The position numbers were made by a program, and so were the translations under genes. This document shows, one piece after another, positions 3,261 to 52,765 of a DNA stretch of 64,000 nucleotides (the first letter of the stretch is position 1; each line of letters starts with the position of its first letter). The notes beneath the pieces were generated by a model. It saw only the letters and a list, made by a program, of their open reading frames with translations. It was not told the origin of the DNA and ran no database searches. Origin of the DNA: Minisyncoccota bacterium (GTDB lineage Bacteria; Patescibacteriota; Minisyncoccia; Phycocordibacterales; UBA5272); the NCBI GenBank assembly GCA_041651055.1, contig JBAZJW010000001.1, positions 691,702 to 755,701 on the forward strand, given 5' to 3'.

Positions 3261-3881
3261 ATGAACGAATTAGCTGCAACCAGGCCATATACTTTTAAAA
3301 TTGTATTACTTGTTATTCCAAGTCTCATATCTATTTTCGGGGTTTTGTTTTTACGTTGGAGTATTTTTGATATTTTTTTTGGGTTTTGGTTGGAGACATT
3401 AGTCATGGGTATATTTGGGTTATTTATGATATTAGCTCGTTCTACCTTTGGAGATAGAATTGTTGCCACTTTCCTCATTGTTCATTTTGGGGGATTTCTC
3501 CTTGGTTTTTTTGGTCTTATTTATGGTTTTTTTGCTGATACTGCTTATATTGTAAACTCAACTACCGTGCGTATTCCAAATCTTTTTGGAGTAATAGGTG
3601 AAACCTTTTTTCTTTTTAAGTGGACATTCCTTTCTCTAATTAGTAGTTATGCAATTTCTTATTATCATCTCTTCTCTCAAAGAGAGGAATCTGTAAACTT
3701 TTCAAGAGACCTTGTAAAAGATTCGTATAAAAGGATCTTTATTCTTTACTTTCCAATAATCATAGCTGGTAAAGTTATTGTAGGATTAGGGGTGGCCACC
3801 ATTCCACTTATTTTATTGATTTTTGGTAAGACAATTCTTCAAATTTTTGATTACATTAGTATGAAAAAGCAAGAAATATAG
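3261..3881 (+). CDS. Polytopic membrane protein, unknown function
   Basis: 206 aa, at least 5 hydrophobic helices, no recognisable motif. Confidence 0.45.
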   Translation: MNELAATRPYTFKIVLLVIPSLISIFGVLFLRWSIFDIFFGFWLETLVMGIFGLFMILARSTFGDRIVATFLIVHFGGFLLGFFGLIYGFFADTAYIVNSTTVRIPNLFGVIGETFFLFKWTFLSLISSYAISYYHLFSQREESVNFSRDLVKDSYKRIFILYFPIIIAGKVIVGLGVATIPLILLIFGKTILQIFDYISMKKQEI

Positions 3882-4077
3882 CGCTATGTGCCTCATAAAT
3901 AATAAGCTTAAAGTCTTCCCAAAAAGCACAATTCGTGCTAGAATAACCACATTCATCCAATCGGGCAAATCAGGATTTGGACACCTGAGCATATCACTTC
4001 GAGCATAATTGACGCTTACCAAACAGGTATTTCGGAGAAGAGATAATGTGGCACGAGGCAAATGTATTATTAAACGC

Positions 4078-17829: not shown

Positions 17830-18545
17830 AAGGAGTAGAAAGTGACAATAATAGTTCTAGATAGTACAGGAGGCGAGGGTCTCAACGGGATTCTCATTGA
17901 AGTGTTGCCTGACACTCTCATCCTCACTCTCAGTACAGTCTTCCTTGATTCGTGGGGCGACGAACGAGATATTTGCCACCTTCTTGATGCTCTTGAGGGT
18001 GCGGCGGACGAGGTGCCGTGTGGCATTCGTTCCGATGGAAATAATCCAGTTAACCTTGTCATAGTGGACGATCGCCGTGAGCCCGTTCTTGGACTTGTCC
18101 AATCGCTTGCGCTAGGGCTTGGAGATCTTGGAGACTCCTCCGTTGGATTTATTTCGAAGAGACCAAGTCTCCATCCATACGGTCCACTAAAACATGGAAA
18201 GAAAGGAAAGGCAAAGAAATGGTGAAAACAATCTGTTCTTGTGGTGTATGCTGTGAACACCGGCCACCACAAACGTGCCGAATTTTGGCCGAACGTTCTG
18301 ACGAAGCAAGAAGAGGTGCGCTCCTTCAGCTTGGGGTTGAGTGCCACCTGCTGACCCTGTCAACTGAGATGGGGCAGCCTGTCATCCAGGCGACCCCTTC
18401 AGATCCCCATAACGGGGACTTCCACGATGAGGCTCTTCCTGCTTGGGGAGAGTCTGCCGTACCCGACATGCTCTGAAATATGTCCGTCCGTGAGCGCTTC
18501 AAGCTCAAATGCCTTCGAGACATCTCGTCGGCTTTTTTATTTGTA
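17830..18545 (+). other. GC-rich (~50%) 0.7 kb segment without credible CDS; candidate large structured ncRNA or decayed foreign gene, ending in a + strand terminator
   Basis: Only low-complexity Ser/Arg/Pro-rich or Leu/Asp/Gly-rich ORFs overlap on both strands; local stems (e.g. GGAGACT/AGTCTCC); terminator-like hairpin + T6 at about 18500..18545. Confidence 0.2.
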
Positions 18546-24176: not shown

Positions 24177-25067
24177 ATGCGATGGCTGCTCGTTGCTTGT
24201 CTGAGTGCTCTTGTTTTTACGAGTACTGCTTTTGCTTTTGATGCGCCTTCAAAACCTACAGGGTATGTGAATGATTACGCGGGCATCCTTTCGGTAGAGA
24301 CAAAGCAAGGGCTTGAAAAAGAACTTACTTTATTTACAGCAAGTACAACTAATGAAATTGCTGTAGTTACGGTTCCGGATCTTGGGGGAATTACTATCGA
24401 AGAATACGCAATCAAGATTTTTGATGCGTGGAAAATAGGAAAAGAAAAACAAGATAACGGTGTACTTTTTTTGATAGCCCCAAACGACAGAACGGCTCGC
24501 ATAGAGGTTGGGTATGGTTTAGAAGGTGCACTTCCAGATATCCTTGCTAAGGATATTTTGAACACAAAAGTTTTTCCTGAATTCAAAAATGGCAATTACA
24601 ATCTTGGCATCTTGCAGGGGGTGAAAGCTATCGCAGAAGCAACAAAAGGTGAGTATTCTCCTGTTGGAACAAATAAGAACTCGTCAGGAAATTCTAACCT
24701 GTCAGGTATTGCTATTTTTATTATCATTATCTTTCAGTTTTTTTCAGCATTGTTTGCGAGAAGTAAATCATGGTGGGCTGGTGCTATAGCGGGAGGGCTT
24801 CTCAGTGGCGGCATTGTATATTTTTTTGGATATATATTTGGTGTTACTTTTATTGTCGGTGTTGGGGTTGTCGTTGTTTCAATCTTTTTAGGAGCGCTGT
24901 TTGATTACATTGTTTCATCTGGTTATCAAAAAGCTAAGCTTCAAGGTTCTTCGGTTCCTTGGTGGGCAGGAGGTGGGTCCGGATCTTCATCGAGTTCCAG
25001 CGGCGGGTCATTTGGTGGCTTTGGAGGGGGCTCCTCCGGTGGAGGGGGCGCGAGTGGCAGCTGGTAA
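24177..25067 (+). CDS. TPM-domain (YgcG-like) protein with C-terminal TM helices and Gly/Ser-rich tail
   Basis: Signal peptide, TPM phosphatase-like domain (DYAGILS...IAVVTVPDLGG...LFLIAPNDRTARIEVGYGLEG), TM segments, GGSGSSSSSSGGSFGGFGGG tail. Confidence 0.8.
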   Translation: MRWLLVACLSALVFTSTAFAFDAPSKPTGYVNDYAGILSVETKQGLEKELTLFTASTTNEIAVVTVPDLGGITIEEYAIKIFDAWKIGKEKQDNGVLFLIAPNDRTARIEVGYGLEGALPDILAKDILNTKVFPEFKNGNYNLGILQGVKAIAEATKGEYSPVGTNKNSSGNSNLSGIAIFIIIIFQFFSALFARSKSWWAGAIAGGLLSGGIVYFFGYIFGVTFIVGVGVVVVSIFLGALFDYIVSSGYQKAKLQGSSVPWWAGGGSGSSSSSSGGSFGGFGGGSSGGGGASGSW

Positions 25068-25119
25068 AATGTCGGATTTTTAATTAATAAATTCATATCT
25101 AAAAATATGATAGAATAAT

Positions 25120-25150
25120 CACGGCGCACACAGTGCGCCGTGATTATTGT
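25120..25150 (+). terminator. Terminator-like hairpin after the TPM gene
   Basis: CACGGCGCA-CACAG-TGCGCCGTG followed by ATTATTGTT. Confidence 0.5.
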
Positions 25151-25153
25151 TAT

Positions 25154-25186
25154 GGAGGCGTCGGATAGTGGTTTATTGCACCACTT
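25154..25186 (+). pseudogene. 5' fragment (~33 nt) of a tRNA-Ser-like gene
   Basis: GGAGGCGTCGGATAGTGGTTTATTGCACCAC versus the intact GGAGGCGTCGCATAGTGGTCTAGTGCACTACC 115 bp downstream. Confidence 0.55.
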
Positions 25187-25268
25187 TGTTCCCGATTTTT
25201 TAAGTTGTACTCAACTTGTTAAAATCGCAATCCAGAAAAAAGTAAAATAATTGTATTGTTTTTAATGC

Positions 25269-25355
25269 GGAGGCGTCGCATAGTGGTCTAGTGCACTACC
25301 TTGGAAAGGTAGCAACGGGGTAACCTGTTCGAGAGTTCAAATCTCTCCGCCTCCG
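25269..25355 (+). tRNA. tRNA-Ser (anticodon GGA), long variable arm, discriminator G
   Basis: Hand fold: acceptor GGAGGCG/CGCCTCC, 3-bp D-stem with GG loop, anticodon stem CTACC/GGTAG with loop TTGGAAA, variable arm about 17 nt, T-arm GAGAG-TTCAAAT-CTCTC. Confidence 0.7.
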
Positions 25356-25384
25356 CTTTGAAAACAATCTGTTCTACTTTTTTT

Positions 25385-25441
25385 CGGAGAAAGGTAGCAA
25401 CGGGGTAACCTGTTCGAGAGTTCAAATCTCTCCGCCTCCGC
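25385..25441 (+). repeat. Direct duplicate of the 3' half of tRNA-Ser(GGA), starting inside the anticodon loop
   Basis: GGAGAAAGGTAGCAACGGGGTAACCTGTTCGAGAGTTCAAATCTCTCCGCCTCCGC is identical to the tRNA from the anticodon stem 3' strand to the 3' end. Confidence 0.75.
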
Positions 25442-25449
25442 AAAATCGC

Positions 25450-25636
25450 GAGCGTACTCGCGACCAGATTTTGCTAGTGCATTTCAAGGAGCGTACTCGC
25501 GACTATGAATATGCCTCCGCAAACAAATATAAAAAGACTACTAAAATCAGAAGTTTATTTTGTGTGAGCGTACTCGCGACCAGATTTTGCTAGTGCATTT
25601 CAAGGAGCGTACTCGCGACTATGAATATGCCTCCGC
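25450..25636 (+). repeat. Two 71-bp tandem units (period 116 bp), each ending in tRNA-acceptor-like GCCTCCGC
   Basis: Unit gagcgtactcgcgaccagattttgctagtgcatttcaaggagcgtactcgcgactatgaatatgcctccgc at 25450..25520 and again at 25566..25636; internal 15-mer gagcgtactcgcgac twice per unit. Confidence 0.8.
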
Positions 25637-25663
25637 TCTGAAAAGAATCAATTTACTTTGTGT

Positions 25664-25747
25664 CGGAGAAAGGTGATAAGGTGAAAGCCTTCACGGGTTC
25701 GAATCCCGCACCCTCTGCTTTGCTCGGGAGAAAGGTAGTAATAGGCG
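25664..25747 (+). repeat. Two further anticodon-loop-to-3'-end tRNA fragments (a different Ser/Leu-type tRNA, then a diverged copy)
   Basis: CGGAGAAAGGTGATAAGGTGAAAGCCTTCACGGGTTCGAATCCCGCACCCTCTGC, then CGGGAGAAAGGTAGTAATAGGCG; all fragments begin with the same GGAGAAAGG junction. Confidence 0.6.
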
Positions 25748-25829
25748 ATTTTTAAGCGTAAAAATCGCGTCGAAATTAGCAAATTTCGACGTAAATAAAT
25801 CGCACTGTCTCCTTTAAAAATAACCCTTC

Positions 25830-26420
25830 CTAATTCCCCTCAGAAATTTTAGCTTTAAAAAATTCTTCGATATCAATCTCATACCACTCTTTCGGAATTT
25901 TTTCTCTAAACCAAATACTTCGTTCGTAGTCATCGAGTTCTGTTGCGATGACCCATGTCAGAATAACGACAAAGACTATACAAAAAACAGACGCTCCTCC
26001 TATAATGAGATTTTCATAATTAAAGAGCATTGAGAGAATTATTAATATACATGATGGTGCTCCAACTAAAATATGCATCATAATAGGTATCTGCTCATCA
26101 CGATAAAGAAGAAATGTTTCAAGATCCTTCCGTAAAACACATTTTGAAATAATTTTATATTCTTTAAAGACTGACTCTACAGCAATACTTGCGAATATGA
26201 CATAAATGAAAGCAACAAGAGGCATAATCATGAAGAGGATTGGATTTTCTGCTTCTTTACTAAACATAAGACCATTTTGAATAAAAACATATTTCCAGAT
26301 GCCAACCATAATAATCCCAGCCACAATAGGCTTGAGGATAATAGGAAGATGTCGTTTCAGTGTATTCCAGTTCCTGTTCCAAGGAATGTAATTTCTTTTT
26401 CTAACGATTGTTGTTTCCAT
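25830..26420 (-). CDS. Hypothetical 4-TM membrane protein
   Basis: 196 aa, four hydrophobic helices, no known motif; first gene after the tRNA-Ser repeat scar. Confidence 0.5.
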   Translation of the reverse strand: METTIVRKRNYIPWNRNWNTLKRHLPIILKPIVAGIIMVGIWKYVFIQNGLMFSKEAENPILFMIMPLVAFIYVIFASIAVESVFKEYKIISKCVLRKDLETFLLYRDEQIPIMMHILVGAPSCILIILSMLFNYENLIIGGASVFCIVFVVILTWVIATELDDYERSIWFREKIPKEWYEIDIEEFFKAKISEGN

Positions 26421-26565
26421 GATAGTTGAATACTATTCTTCTCTAGAGCGCTAGTCAATAGAGCGTAATCTGGGCTGGACTCTGTTATGTGGTTATTTTC
26501 TTGTTGTCGAAAAAAGTGCGCAATTTGAAAATTACTAGACATCTAGTGCTATACTAAACTTAACT

Positions 26566-28611
26566 ATGCAAGAAAAGATTTCTTCGTTTTTACGTATCAA
26601 ATGGGCCCTTCTTCTGTATACAGGTGTTAGTATTGTTTGTGCACTTTCTCTTTCTTTCTATGCACAAGATGTCGGCCTTCGTCTATTTGATTTTGTTGCA
26701 CAAAACCAAGAAAAGAAATTAATAACCTATTTACGTACCGAAGGGGATTCAATTATAGAAAAAGTATCCACATTCAGTGCGAGAGATGATGTTAAAGAGT
26801 CTTTGCGTCAGAAAGATGTATCAAGACTTACAGAACTTTTGGAACAAGCAAAGATATCCACGGGACTTATGGCCTTCACAGCGGCAGATGCTCAAGGTGT
26901 TGCATTATCTCGTTTTCCCGTAAAAGCAAACCTTGGGGATAATGTGTTTCTTACACTTCCGATCGGGAGAATCGCTTCACAAGGGGCGACAGCTATTACC
27001 TATGGTCCAGGAAGAAACTTTTCTTTAACCATGGCGTCAGGCCATTTGGTTCAAGACAAAGGAATTCTTCTCGGTGCAGTTTTTGGAGGACATTGGTTCA
27101 ATAGTTCTTATGCAAAAGCTTTCAAAACAAATTATCTGAGCTCTTTTTTGAAACAAGAAGTCATTTTTTATTCGAAAGAAGAAGGAATGACCGGGAGTAG
27201 TTTTGAGAGTATAGATGTTCAAAATAAGCTCAGTACATACGTGACACATGCCTCACCACTTATTCAGGAGGGGAGATCGGGAGACTTGATAAACATTAAT
27301 GGAAAGGATTATATAGTGACGAACCATCTTCTTTCTGGAGGCGAAGAAGTGTATGGAGGAATTCTCTTGCTCACTCCTTTACCAAAGACTCTTTTGTTTA
27401 GAAGTTTAGTTATGTCTTTTGTGCTAACACTCCTTTTCCTCATCAGTCTTCTTCTTGTTGAAAAAGTTACCGTGCCAGAACTTTTACGGTTTAAGAAAAA
27501 GCACTTATATTGGCTTCTCCTTATTCTTTCATTGATTGTTTTAGTTACGTTGTGGATGGGGATATATCTTCACGGAAAGTCAGCAACGATGCAATTGGAT
27601 AAGCCAAAGTTTGCCATATATAATTCAACTATAAAGTTACGACCTGAGGCCGGGGTGTACACCATGGGGCATACACAACAGGTTTCTATTGTTGTTTCTT
27701 CTGGTGGGGAAGAGATAAATGCTGTGAAGGTTGGTTTACATTTTAATCCAAAAGTAATTCATGTCGACTCAGTTTCTTTTGATCGATCGATTTGTACACC
27801 AGAAACAATTATTGAGAACAATATTGATAATACAGAAGGAACTATTTCAGTTTCTTGCGTCATCACAGAAAAAGTATTCTCGGATATACGAGGGGTTGTC
27901 GCTGATATTAATTTTACACCAGTCAAATTTGGCGACGCAGCTATTACCTTTACTGACGATACTCACGTGCTTGCTGCAGACGGGCTCGGCACAGAAGTTC
28001 TTCGTTCGATGACGTCTGGTTTTTATAGAGTTTTTGATGATAAAGATTTAGAGGATTCTTTTTCTAAAAATACGCTTATCATTCCCTACTCTCCTACGCA
28101 TGAAAATAGTTCTAGATGGTATAGTAGCAACAACATAACCGTAGCGTGGCCAAAAGTAGAAGGAGCAGACTATCTCTATGAATTTTCAGAAGATGCAACG
28201 ACGACATTCAGTAATCCAAAGAAGATACATGCCAATGAAATTAAAATAGTGGCCCCTCATGATGGTGTATATTATTTTAAACTTGCAGCAAAGAAGGGTG
28301 ATGTCGAAGGTCTTATATCGCGTCTTAAGATTAAGATAGATACAACAGCTCCAGGTATTCCTTTGATTAAGGTAAGTAATCTTTCTGTCATAAAAGATAA
28401 TGTTGTACGTTTTGAATTAAGTTCAGATGACGAGTCTAGTGGTTTGCAAAAGAATTTTTATGTACAGGTTGATGGTAGTGTTTGGTTGCCGTCATTTGCG
28501 AAGTTATATATGCCTTTCCATGATAAAGGTAGTCACATTGTAGGGGTGAGAGTCTTTGATAATGCGGAAAACTATTCTGAGTCGGAAGTGAGAATTCGTG
28601 TTAAAAATTAA
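26566..28611 (+). CDS. Large membrane protein with N-terminal sensor-like extracytoplasmic domain and C-terminal beta-sandwich (Ig/Fn3-like) repeats
   Basis: TM1, about 250-aa domain, TM2-3, then 340-aa beta-rich region; no catalytic motif recognised. Confidence 0.55.
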   Translation: MQEKISSFLRIKWALLLYTGVSIVCALSLSFYAQDVGLRLFDFVAQNQEKKLITYLRTEGDSIIEKVSTFSARDDVKESLRQKDVSRLTELLEQAKISTGLMAFTAADAQGVALSRFPVKANLGDNVFLTLPIGRIASQGATAITYGPGRNFSLTMASGHLVQDKGILLGAVFGGHWFNSSYAKAFKTNYLSSFLKQEVIFYSKEEGMTGSSFESIDVQNKLSTYVTHASPLIQEGRSGDLININGKDYIVTNHLLSGGEEVYGGILLLTPLPKTLLFRSLVMSFVLTLLFLISLLLVEKVTVPELLRFKKKHLYWLLLILSLIVLVTLWMGIYLHGKSATMQLDKPKFAIYNSTIKLRPEAGVYTMGHTQQVSIVVSSGGEEINAVKVGLHFNPKVIHVDSVSFDRSICTPETIIENNIDNTEGTISVSCVITEKVFSDIRGVVADINFTPVKFGDAAITFTDDTHVLAADGLGTEVLRSMTSGFYRVFDDKDLEDSFSKNTLIIPYSPTHENSSRWYSSNNITVAWPKVEGADYLYEFSEDATTTFSNPKKIHANEIKIVAPHDGVYYFKLAAKKGDVEGLISRLKIKIDTTAPGIPLIKVSNLSVIKDNVVRFELSSDDESSGLQKNFYVQVDGSVWLPSFAKLYMPFHDKGSHIVGVRVFDNAENYSESEVRIRVKN

Positions 28612-35308: not shown

Positions 35309-36547
35309 ATGGTAAATTTAGAACAAGCATTACTTCATCCAGACAAAATTCTTTTTCTAGATATAGAGACTACAGGTCTCTCTAGGTATTATGATCAGGT
35401 TACTGTTATCGGGTACGATTTTGGCGGTAAATTTCATTATCATCTTCAAGGGGATGATCTTTCTCATTTTGAAAAGACATTATCAAAGGCATACGCAATT
35501 GTAACTTTTAATGGAACAATTTTCGATGTGAAATTCTTACAGCATCATTTCCCTCATTTAAAATTTCCAGAGCATCATATAGATTTGCGATACCTCATGC
35601 GTCGTGTTGGTTATGCAGGGGGTCAGAAACTCATTGAGGTTTTACTTGGAATGAAAAGAGCCGAGGACATCAAAGGGGTAACGGGATATGAAGCCGTCGT
35701 TTTGTGGCATGAATACCGGAGAGGAAATGAAGATTCATTGCGTAAATTACTTGCGTATAATCATGCAGATGTCCAGGGTATGAAATACATGCTTTCTTTT
35801 GCTCTTGATAAAACCAGTAATGTTCCAAAACTGATCTTTGAAAAGACAGAAAATCCAAGAATTAAAACACGCGCTGTTAAAACTGAAAAACCAAAACCAA
35901 AAGTATACGCAAAAGACTTGTGGAAAAAAATAAAAAAACCACATGGTCCGATTATCGGAATAGATTTAACGGGAAGTGAACTGCGCCCAAGTGGCTTCGC
36001 TATTCTTAATGGTTATACAGCAGAAACTAGACAATGCCTTACGGATAAAGAGATGATAAAACTATGCCGCGAAGCAAAGCCAATGCTTGTTTCAATAGAC
36101 TCACCACTCGGAATTCCAAAAGGAAGAAAGACTTGTTTTGATGATGATCCGACAAGGTATGAAATTGGAATAATGCGATGGGCTGAGAGGGAATTGAAAC
36201 GTCGTGGTGTAAATGTGTACCCATGTCTTATTCCGAGTATGCAAAGGCTCACTAATCGTGGAATGAAGCTTGCAAAAGCACTACGGAAACATGGTATCAA
36301 AGTTATTGAAAGTTATCCTGGTGCAGCACAGGATATCATGCAGATACCACGCAAACAGGCTGGACTGCCATATTTGAAAGATGGGCTGAGGGAATTTGGT
36401 ATTGATGGCTTTTATCACAAAAATATTGTTTCTCATGATGAGATTGACGCCATTACGTCTGCCATCGTTGGCCTTTTTTATTTAGCCGGTAATTATGAAG
36501 CACTCGGAAATGACGATGAAGAGTATTTAGTAATACCAAAAATTTAA
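35309..36547 (+). CDS. Fusion protein: N-terminal DEDDh 3'-5' exonuclease (YprB/MrfB-like) + C-terminal DUF429-like RNase-H-fold domain
   Basis: Exo I LFLDIETTGL, Exo II FNGTIFDVKFL, Exo III YNHADVQGM; C-half GIDLTGSELRPSGFAIL resembles predicted RNase-H-like nucleases. Confidence 0.55.
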   Translation: MVNLEQALLHPDKILFLDIETTGLSRYYDQVTVIGYDFGGKFHYHLQGDDLSHFEKTLSKAYAIVTFNGTIFDVKFLQHHFPHLKFPEHHIDLRYLMRRVGYAGGQKLIEVLLGMKRAEDIKGVTGYEAVVLWHEYRRGNEDSLRKLLAYNHADVQGMKYMLSFALDKTSNVPKLIFEKTENPRIKTRAVKTEKPKPKVYAKDLWKKIKKPHGPIIGIDLTGSELRPSGFAILNGYTAETRQCLTDKEMIKLCREAKPMLVSIDSPLGIPKGRKTCFDDDPTRYEIGIMRWAERELKRRGVNVYPCLIPSMQRLTNRGMKLAKALRKHGIKVIESYPGAAQDIMQIPRKQAGLPYLKDGLREFGIDGFYHKNIVSHDEIDAITSAIVGLFYLAGNYEALGNDDEEYLVIPKI

Positions 36548-52508: not shown

Positions 52509-52580
52509 GCCCTCGTAGTTCAATGGATAGAACAGTTTCGTCCTAAGAAATTGATGTGGGTCCGATTCCTGCCGAGGGCA
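52509..52580 (+). tRNA. tRNA-Arg (anticodon CCT) with atypical T-arm
   Basis: Acceptor GCCCTCG/CGAGGGC, D GTTC-AATGGATA-GAAC, anticodon stem GTTTC/GAAAT with loop GTCCTAA. T-stem GTGGG/CCTGC has two G-U pairs, and the T-loop is TCCGATT (C at the usually invariant U55). Confidence 0.6.
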
Positions 52581-52765
52581 CTATAAGTAAAACACCTTCA
52601 AGTAATCTTGTGGGTGTTTTACTTATAGCTGTTTATAGGAACAAGTTAGCCTGCGCTGACTTGTGACAGGAATCGGATACGGGGTCGAGGAGTCTCCTGT
52701 TTCGAGTGAAGCGAGAAACGAGACGAGGTGACCGAAAATGTACTCATGGTTCCTGCCGAGGGCAC
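52581..52765 (+). repeat. tRNA-Arg-associated element A: 16-bp perfect hairpin, CUGC-loop hairpin, 68-nt conserved core, then 16-bp direct repeat of the tRNA 3' end
   Basis: Hairpin CTATAAGTAAAACACC...GGTGTTTTACTTATAG at 52581..52628; GTTAGC-CTGC-GCTGAC at 52645..52660; core at 52666..52733; ttcctgccgagggcac at 52566..52581 and again at 52750..52765. Confidence 0.75.

Follow-up and report, generated by a model that had tools for sequence, protein, structure and literature searches.

The window examined here is a stretch of 64,000 nucleotides from a Minisyncoccota bacterium of the Patescibacteriota (GenBank assembly GCA_041651055.1, contig JBAZJW010000001.1, positions 691,702 to 755,701). It carries one intact serine transfer RNA (tRNA) gene, tRNA-Ser(GGA), embedded in pieces of other tRNA-Ser genes. 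We consider it probable that this locus is a stack of retired tRNA-Ser(GGA) genes, produced by serial replacement with structured cassettes that each brought a whole gene. A sequence-only reading of the window had seen one intact tRNA surrounded by partial copies and related their common start to the crossover site of P4-type integrases. Its description of a recombination scar with several rounds is partly right; fragments are stacked and relatives carry differing sets of them. The intact gene appears instead to be the newest arrival, seated on a 200-bp cassette within an older copy, and the locus is not a classical P4-type integration site.

The nested genes and their junctions

The sole intact tRNA-Ser(GGA) lies at 25269-25356 on the plus strand (ARAGORN; Rfam tRNA family, 56.1 bits), as had been read from the sequence, and is of the allele we call C-type; it is 100% identical to the tRNAs of two related loci, L082 and L133. 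Upstream, 25154-25188 (plus strand) holds the dead 5' half, nucleotides 1-34, of an older C-type gene. Repeat finding and BLAST match it to the 5' part of the live tRNA at 30 of 35 positions, and its last base is the anticodon nucleotide G34. Downstream, 25389-25441 (plus strand) is the 3' half of the older gene, from G35 to its end, and is an exact copy of 25304-25356 in the live tRNA (BLAST E ~1e-25). Both fragments had been reported before with slightly different limits: the first is 35 rather than 33 nt long, and the second is 53 nt beginning 32 bp downstream rather than 57 nt beginning 30 bp downstream. The sequence GGAGAAAGGT has three exact occurrences in the 64 kb, all within 352 nt (25386, 25665 and 25727), so that all three 3' fragments begin at one base, the second anticodon nucleotide. 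The shared starting point in the anticodon loop noted earlier is thereby borne out.

Between G34 and G35 of the older gene sits the 200-bp cassette (25189-25388, plus strand), delimited by a table of junctions across relatives. It runs from TTCCC through a hairpin, H1 (25194-25226), a leader (25231-25268) and the live tRNA to a trailer (25357-25388) that ends in GGA. No further copy of the cassette pieces was found in the 64 kb, and none of the window's four other tRNAs shows similar half-gene nesting; tRNA-Arg alone has a 16-nt copy of its 3' end.

The same architecture is present in six loci: the window, L131, L082/L083, L005, L239 and L129/L130. These belong to a set of about 16 related loci, all from metagenome assemblies, gathered by a TPM-protein scan of species-representative genomes, by contig look-ups (TPM homologues 54-65% identical) and by one metagenome scan for the junction motif followed by the T loop. 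The order shared by the six is a 5' half to G34, YTCC with a hairpin, a leader, a full tRNA-Ser(GGA), a trailer ending in GGA and a 3' half, GAAAGG, from G35. Seven relatives (L138, L135, L081, L245, L145, L240 and L132) are plain, with a single gene and no fragments. The plain loci hold at least three alleles, distinguished by their acceptor strands as Z (GGAGAGG), G (GGAGGGT) and C (GGAGGCG); a fourth, A (AGAGGGT), is live in L005, L239 and L129. The comparison with relatives proposed in the sequence-only reading thus finds both cassette-bearing and plain loci. A conserved functional tRNA array, the alternative named there, does not describe them: fragment sets differ from relative to relative, several relatives are plain, the window has one intact tRNA and Tandem Repeats Finder reports no array.

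The cassette junctions of the six loci share the position 34|35. The six left junctions read ..TTG|YTCC (CTG in L239) and the eight right junctions ..SGGA|GAAAG, and the host halves vary in allele (Z, A, C or a GGAGGGT/ATCCTCC type). TTG joined to GAAAGG reconstitutes the anticodon loop exactly; the fragments abut, with no loss and no duplication. The acceptor strands of the outer fragments are complementary at 7/7 positions in the window (5' strand GGAGGCG), L131 and L129, which together with the abutment at 34|35 indicates that each pair of fragments is one gene opened by a single cut. To judge from the sequence, this cut appears to have split and killed the resident gene, and the cassette to have supplied the working copy. 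In L129, L005 and L239 the inner gene is A-type (AGAGGGT/ACCCTCT) and the outer one GGAGGGT/ATCCTCC or Z-type (GGAGAGG), with compensated acceptor stems. Such different inner and outer alleles exclude simple local duplication.

These junctions do not support crossover by a P4-type tyrosine integrase as originally suggested, because the halves abut (..TTG|GAAAGG..) with no core in common and a whole gene has been inserted. A preprint (10.1101/2020.11.02.365908) places the start of the bacterial attachment site (attB) of P4-like integrases in the T loop, the anticodon loop being used by HP1-like enzymes. A tyrosine-recombinase core was tried as a candidate and rejected; no common 7-bp overlap can be derived from the left and right junctions.

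The innermost tRNA is predicted to be the only functional one, the fragments being decaying halves. The outer gene is most simply read as dead because its 5' halves are broken, some halves are incompatible, and L005 and L239 are without most of the outer 3' half. Substitutions in the outer 5' halves disrupt the D stem and the anticodon stem, and the D arm of L129 is degenerate. Position 31 is C in all live alleles and non-C in 6/6 of the 5' remnants. Those of the window and L131 have two further substitutions in common, and their first 16 nt track each genome's own allele; within each genome, inner and outer halves track one another.

Cassette fold and stacked remnants

H1 consists of two helices with 12 pairs (GATTTT-TT-AAGTTG-TACT-CAACTT-GTT-AAAATC) and starts five nucleotides in from the left cassette end. 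In an alignment of the six cassettes (A2), 95.8% of cells are paired and compensatory double changes are found in 7/12 pairs; none of 500 shuffles reached the observed score, and the signal was lost when partners were slid. The TACT loop is conserved in the window, L131, L082, L005 and L239. Neither strand has a T-run after the hairpin, hence H1 is not a terminator. A TAAAAT box was considered as a -10 promoter element and rejected, being the 3' strand of H1; a consensus scan returned weak sites only.

Leader and trailer are the two strands of a second structure, stem S. It prolongs the acceptor stem of the live tRNA and was recognised from inverted repeats, the leader-trailer duplex and the predicted fold. 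The leader, its 5' strand, begins TCC just past the hairpin and is complementary to the trailer, its 3' strand, whose terminal GGA is the right cassette end. The window duplex has 29 pairs (z = -6.2 against shuffled trailers). Across the cassettes, stem S has 22-29 pairs in C-type and 10-12 in A-type members, with z of -5.3 to -6.2 in four of the six, -2.5 in L005 and -1.6 in L129; its sequence varies by locus and its complementarity is kept. The pairing is absent at four plain loci tested (z 0.1 to 1.2). A consensus fold of the six cassettes added just 6 pairs of stem S, as leader lengths are unequal, and duplex energies were therefore computed locus by locus.

The predicted fold of the 288-nt RNA 25154-25441 (z = -9) has the outer acceptor stem, H1 and a long stem around a normal cloverleaf. 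Taken with the covariation of H1 and the pairing of stem S, this suggests that the cassette is a distinct, selected, self-folding unit, more than a tRNA gene with ordinary flanks. H1 and the leader-trailer stem may let the inner pre-tRNA fold and be processed independently within a longer transcript. Rfam searches with the cassette, the 71-nt units described below and the tRNA 3'-end elements gave tRNA matches only, with no intron, ribozyme, tmRNA, signal recognition particle (SRP) or TnpB/IscB guide-RNA family. Far from the locus, at 18223-18239, a stretch within an unannotated 185-residue open reading frame (ORF) matches part of the cassette trailer exactly over 17 nt (TGAAAACAATCTGTTCT); with no tRNA-like neighbour, this is probably chance.

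Older remnants lie outside the nested pair, all on the plus strand. An older trailer, TCTGAAAAGAATCAATTTACTTTGTGTCGGA (25637-25667), is homologous to 25357-25388 and also ends in GGA at a 34|35 junction. It is followed by a dead 51-nt 3' half of an A-type tRNA-Ser(GGA) (25668-25718), whose identity to the 3' half of the intact tRNA is 92% for L005 and 88% for L239. Then comes an A-type trailer, TTTGCTCGGGA (25719-25729), again ending in GGA and matching TTTGCGCGGGA in L005, TTTGTTCGGGA in L239 and TTTGTGTCGGA in L129. Outermost lies GAAAGGTAGTAATAGG (25730-25745), a relic of 16 nt that stems from the 3' half of a Z-type gene, the oldest resident. Two additional 3' halves had been claimed from the sequence; the A-type one is real and the other is just this relic. 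The spacers ahead of the fragments are homologous too (25349-25395 against 25629-25674, 85% identity), so that a block of GCCTCCGC, about 30 nt and GGAGAAAGG is present twice at 85% identity.

The relatives provide a counterpart for the outer layers. The series of 3' half, trailer and relic at 25668-25745 recurs in L005 and L239, downstream of their live A-type gene. At the relic position L239 has GAAAGGTATCAACCGG followed by the same CGATTTTTAAGCG tail, and a Z-type 5' half stands upstream. L239 thus carries a live A-type cassette between Z-type halves with a right end exactly as in the window, which makes an L239-like state ancestral to that of the window. The A-type and Z-type remnants of the window match alleles that are live in other species. 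On the 3' side, identity to live alleles drops outwards, from 100% to 92% to the 16-nt relic, and this fits nesting with the newest gene inside.

From the nesting we infer the following order of events. (i) An A-type cassette would have invaded a Z-type gene, the state still seen in L239 and L005. (ii) A C-type gene with a cassette-type trailer would then have replaced everything up to G34 of the A-type gene. (iii) A different small element, represented by two 71-nt units, would have entered the 3' end of this C-type gene. (iv) Finally the present C-type cassette would have landed in the anticodon of that C-type gene. The replacing unit would be about 115-200 bp long and comprise a left end YTCC, the 12-bp H1, a leader, a complete tRNA-Ser(GGA) and a pairing trailer ending in GGA, landing exactly between G34 and G35 of the resident gene.

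The region of step (iii), 25442-25636 (plus strand), is a second type of scar, located between the 3' half of the older gene and the old trailer and delimited by repeats and BLAST. Its two hairpin-rich 71-nt units (25450-25520 and 25566-25636) are identical and each ends in GCCTCCGC, the last 8 nt of the tRNA, which recurs at 25434, 25513 and 25629; GAGCGTACTCGCGAC occurs four times, always within the units. Two units with this acceptor-like end had been read as tandem. They are separated by a 45-nt spacer (period 116), and Tandem Repeats Finder calls nothing here.

By their sequence the units may belong, through a loose link, with a family of elements in which a tRNA end is followed by 100-190 structured nucleotides and then by a copy of the last 16-18 nt of the tRNA, starting from the T loop. 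Such elements follow tRNA-Ser in L131, in decayed form in L006 and L133, and in L081, where only the start is present before the contig ends; another follows tRNA-Arg(CCT) in the window (52582-52765). Motifs are shared across different tRNAs (alignment A1), and the tRNA-Arg element has motifs in common with those after tRNA-Ser in L131, L006, L133 and L081. In the tRNA-Arg(CCT) region (52509-52765) the tRNA is succeeded by a terminator hairpin and a non-coding, structured element some 170 nt long. The region closes with TTCCTGCCGAGGGCAC, which repeats 16 nt of the tRNA 3' end exactly and starts in the T loop; the element holds a reverse complement of the T arm and has no Rfam match. Fold z-scores are -3.1 for the tRNA-Arg element and -4.7 for that of L131, and weaker for the 71-nt units (-2.2 and -1.4). 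The 3'-end elements fit collapsed integrations at the 3' end or T loop much better than the anticodon cassettes do.

Comparison of close relatives suggests that turnover of tRNA-Ser alleles can be recent. L080 and L081, with TPM proteins 95% identical, are 99% identical in DNA until tRNA nucleotide 11 and then continue into different alleles, a live Z-type gene in one and a G-type gene with remnants in the other. L080 (4370-4580, compared with L081 4372-4459) has two stacked 5' remnants that stop after the D loop (GGTCTAG|). L132 (4314-5010), L133 (1961-2763) and L134 come from three JGI samples and encode an identical TPM protein; L132 differs from the other two by a 106-bp indel on the 5' side of tRNA-Ser, with perfect direct repeats of 67 bp around it. 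Within the indel are a 5' remnant, 25 nt of filler and an anticodon-loop junction that is palindromic (CTTGGAA-C-TTTCCAAG).

The neighbourhood of the locus is ordinary. A block of ThrRS, LemA, HtpX, LemA and TPM genes lies upstream, as it does ahead of tRNA-Ser(GGA) in nearly all related loci, and genes for a DNA_binding_1 protein, a SpoU methylase and NrdD/NrdG lie downstream. A terminator-like perfect 16-bp inverted repeat (25114-25148) follows the TPM-domain gene (24177-25067). Beyond the relic, a conserved tail with two hairpins (25746-25795) is orthologous in L131 and L239; its second hairpin is terminator-like for the minus-strand gene that comes next. This is one of two lineage-specific genes (25830-28611) placed between tRNA-Ser and the DNA_binding_1/SpoU genes, and encodes 196 residues with no Pfam family; the other, on the plus strand, encodes 681 residues with a sub-threshold Cohesin match. 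The sequence-only reading had described these genes as non-housekeeping membrane and surface proteins of the kind expected in an island. The slot from tRNA-Ser to the conserved DNA_binding_1/SpoU genes does differ in gene content among relatives; no distal copy of the tRNA 3' end was found to bracket the two genes, and their status as cargo of a single island is unsupported. In L139 (about 3578-3948) a small membrane-protein ORF, which follows TPM in relatives, is split by unrelated DNA with a minus-strand 148-residue ORF; either an insertion or a chimeric contig might account for it. The window's only nuclease-fold protein of uncertain role has 412 residues (35309-36547) and a domain of the RNase_H_2 superfamily (PF13482), with no evident link to the tRNA locus.

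Spread of the cassettes and rival readings

Two routes for the spread of the cassettes were weighed. We lean towards one or a few original insertions that were copied and nested by homologous recombination, with the dead halves serving as arms. This preference rests on (i) the non-C at position 31 in the remnants; (ii) the shared substitutions; (iii) an H1 module 94% identical between the window and L005 despite TPM proteins only 55% identical; (iv) identical C-type tRNAs, the C-type tRNA being 100% identical in three genomes with TPM proteins just 57-61% identical to that of the window; and (v) the co-tracking of inner and outer halves. The second route, which we regard as the less likely of the two, is a recombinase acting in trans on a non-autonomous element. 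It is suggested by a cut between the two anticodon Gs with no duplication and no classical terminal repeats. L133 and L080 have a variant, less altered left junction, TTGGAA|CTTTCCAAG (TTGGAA|CTTTCC); taken with the right junctions ..GGA|GAAAGG, it would fit an overlap of 2-3 bp.

A bolder version of the second route, which we put forward as no more than tentative, is a mobile 'tRNA-in-tRNA' cassette. Such a non-autonomous element would target the anticodon GG of tRNA-Ser(GGA), kill the resident and make the cell dependent on the copy it brings, and would be moved in trans by a recombinase. H1 and the leader-trailer stem would then be recognition or processing structures, and a 2-bp exchange like that of a serine recombinase would fit the least-altered junctions.

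Several observations weigh against serial replacement by cassettes. The sample is six cassette loci, four of which share the ThrRS-LemA-HtpX-LemA-TPM neighbourhood. If the junctions all descend from one event copied by recombination, the repeated site is not independent evidence for site specificity. Breakpoints also occur after nucleotide 11 and after nucleotide 23 (L080, L133), so the anticodon is not the sole site of breakage, and the outer halves of L082 mismatch, forming 4/7 acceptor pairs. The two halves have decayed unequally in the window and L131: the 3' half agrees with the live tRNA at 53/53 positions, against 4-5 changes per 35 nt in the 5' half (pooled Fisher p = 2e-4), which decay of equal age does not predict. 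The window remnants are unbalanced as well, with one 5' remnant and three to four 3' remnants. The older left parts must accordingly have been deleted or replaced, possibly through recombination with a left crossover upstream of the tRNA.

The searches for an enzyme or a carrier add to this side. None of the 60 non-overlapping ORFs of at least 90 codons in the 64 kb has an integrase, transposase or recombinase Pfam match (54 were scanned with Pfam; ThrRS, the two LemA, HtpX, NrdD and a radical-SAM ORF were covered by precomputed Pfam assignments), in agreement with the sequence-only reading that the window lacks an integrase. The whole locus had no BLAST match in phage and plasmid collections. 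In IMG/VR, searches with the junction motifs and both tRNA alleles returned 43, 91, 0 and 0 hits, those that appeared being chance matches that lacked tRNA context. No enzyme gene in the 64 kb, circular form or donor element was found.

The strongest rival, which we nevertheless regard as improbable, invokes classical tRNA-targeted islands. Elements with tyrosine integrases would have used the anticodon loop as their entry point, or in other cases the T loop or 3' end. Each would have displaced the old fragment and restored the gene with a copy of its own; later deletion of their interiors would have left collapsed relics of the left and right attachment sites (attL-attR). The displaced 3' fragments are co-oriented with the tRNA, tandem island arrays are a known signature, and the gene slot downstream is variable. 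The 71-nt units and the elements that end in the last 8-18 nt of a tRNA also fit collapsed 3'-end integrations. Against this, the anticodon halves abut at 34|35 without a core, where two independent integrase events should each retain the 7-nt loop, and what was inserted is a whole gene together with structured flanks of its own, not a 3' half. The same tiny insert size is found in six loci with no remnant of island genes, the 64 kb holds no integrase, viral contigs give no attP-like match, and no distal repeat surrounds the downstream genes.

Purely local rearrangement would need no incoming DNA: slippage or unequal crossing-over would have duplicated the tRNA gene in tandem, and deletions and gene conversion would have reshaped the copies afterwards. 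Each 53-nt or 71-nt repeat is an exact copy no more than 120 bp away from its partner, the 106-bp indel of L132/L133 with its 67-bp perfect repeats is typical of unequal recombination, and inner and outer halves co-vary in each genome. We hold this to be unlikely. Duplication cannot yield the mixed inner and outer alleles of L129, L005 and L239, the A-type and Z-type remnants of the window have their matches in other species, and two deletions, independent of each other, would need to have stopped at positions that complement one another exactly.

A functional arrangement is less likely still. The outer tRNA would be split or intron-containing and rejoined after removal of the cassette, or the 3' halves would serve as functional RNAs. 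In its favour, stem S juxtaposes the cassette ends and the predicted fold retains the outer acceptor stem, variable arm and T arm. The insertion lies at 34/35, where group I introns of bacterial tRNA-Leu have been mapped (PMC13011429), and in the window and L131 the outer 3' half is free of changes. The stem-breaking substitutions of the outer 5' halves, the degenerate D arm of L129, the incompatible halves of L082 and the largely missing 3' halves of L005 and L239 all speak against it. Rfam searches relaxed to E = 10 returned neither a ribozyme nor any other family besides tRNA, and the 34|35 junction is without the U...G boundaries of group I introns. The split-tRNA or intron version was rejected on account of the decayed 5' halves and the incompatible halves.

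Repeat-induced misassembly of a MEGAHIT metagenome contig is scarcely credible, although the window comes from one metagenome assembly with exact repeats and Logan contigs break within them: the 53- and 71-nt repeats are shorter than the final k of 141, the Logan ends show no mismatch to the window until the repeated k-mers are reached, and the architecture recurs in unrelated NCBI, JGI, ENA and Logan assemblies of different species. The artefact envisaged in the sequence-only reading is unlikely for the same reasons. The two Logan contigs that agree with the window (run SRR8542065) perhaps overlap in data with ENA ERZ27247363 (k141_936812). One of them, L002, ends at window position 25333 and the other, L004, at 25607, roughly 30 nt inside the repeats of 53 and 71 nt; L245 breaks off at the very 3' end of the tRNA. 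Assemblies made with a short k break systematically at these loci, and such structures will consequently be under-represented in public contigs.

Relation to known systems

tRNA genes are classic landing sites for mobile DNA, and the known strategy is for such DNA to repair its target by supplying the half that is lost. The unit that entered here instead appears to have carried a whole tRNA gene able to fold by itself and to have left the old one broken, a mode that could be termed "disrupt and replace". If the cassette is an active element, it would be a minimal selfish gene hijacking an essential function and a natural case of a tRNA expressed within the transcript of another. It would also account for the very different tRNA-Ser(GGA) alleles that circulate in closely related Patescibacteria. 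Even on a conservative view, half-tRNA fragments at such loci are unfit for gene annotation or for setting island boundaries, and tRNA alleles are exchanged horizontally in these bacteria on a time scale of less than 5% protein divergence.

The cassettes resemble tRNA islands in having a tRNA target, co-oriented dead fragments beside a working gene, a cut in the anticodon loop, a pile-up of remnants and variable adjoining genes (PMC4383910; 10.1101/2020.11.02.365908). Islander counts 3760 islands that have a 3' fragment and 159 that have a 5' one, along with 2083 sites centred on the anticodon and 125 tandems (PMC4383910). The orientation of the fragments, all on the plus strand, and their start in the anticodon loop, a recognised sublocation, agree with this class. 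The differences are that a cassette is only 115-200 bp long, has no integrase, brings a complete tRNA rather than the missing half, has a covarying secondary structure, and leaves 5' and 3' fragments that abut without a core. Islands would have an integrase gene between the tRNA and the displaced fragment; the window's cassette contains no ORF and the corresponding intervals, of 32-330 bp, are non-coding. Nor is there a restored part or a common core at both junctions, as the fragments end at G34 and start at G35.

Streptococcal cis-mobilizable elements are integrase-less relics, flanked by attachment (att) sites, that accumulate beside tRNA genes. Being small non-autonomous units, bounded by recombination sites, that stack in tandem at a tRNA gene, they come closest to the 71-nt units and the 3'-end elements. 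They differ in that the att repeats they keep, at the 3' end of the tRNA, are of the classical kind, and in that they are not known to carry a tRNA gene.

The Thermococcaceae have partial tRNA genes beside canonical ones that result from element integration and are easily mis-annotated (PMC9897764). These and other archaeal disrupted tRNAs differ from the cassettes in being single fragments at the ends of kilobase-sized elements, not a gene within a gene. Miniature inverted-repeat transposable elements are a poor match, as the leader/trailer inverted repeats covary, there is no duplication and the 64 kb holds no second copy.

Group I introns share with the cassette their occurrence in Patescibacteria, their position in the anticodon loop and a compact structured insert whose ends are brought together. 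They occur at 34/35 in bacterial tRNA-Leu and in one tRNA-Arg, and those of Patescibacteria lie mostly at 35/36 and 36/37 (PMC13011429). The cassette, in contrast, has neither a ribozyme core nor the U/G boundary rule, its would-be exons have decayed, and the insert encodes a functional tRNA. Intron_gpI gave no match at E up to 10, and the relatives gave tRNA matches only. The outer halves would not join into a foldable tRNA, as the D and anticodon stems are broken and L082 forms 4/7 acceptor pairs.

The IS607 family offers a parallel for the cut itself. Its serine transposase inserts at GG with no target-site duplication and no classical terminal inverted repeats (PMC6188088), and in all six loci the cassette is inserted between both Gs of the anticodon GGA (G34 and G35 of TTGGAAA), likewise without duplication. 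The right junctions read ..CGGA|GAAAGG and the common left junction has one G; of the left junctions, the L133/L080 form alone, TTGGAA|CTTTCC, would fit a 2-bp exchange with a GA or GG overlap. The cassette differs from IS607 in that its 200 bp carry a tRNA and no transposase or TnpB, and neither TnpA nor TnpB is found in the cassette or the window.

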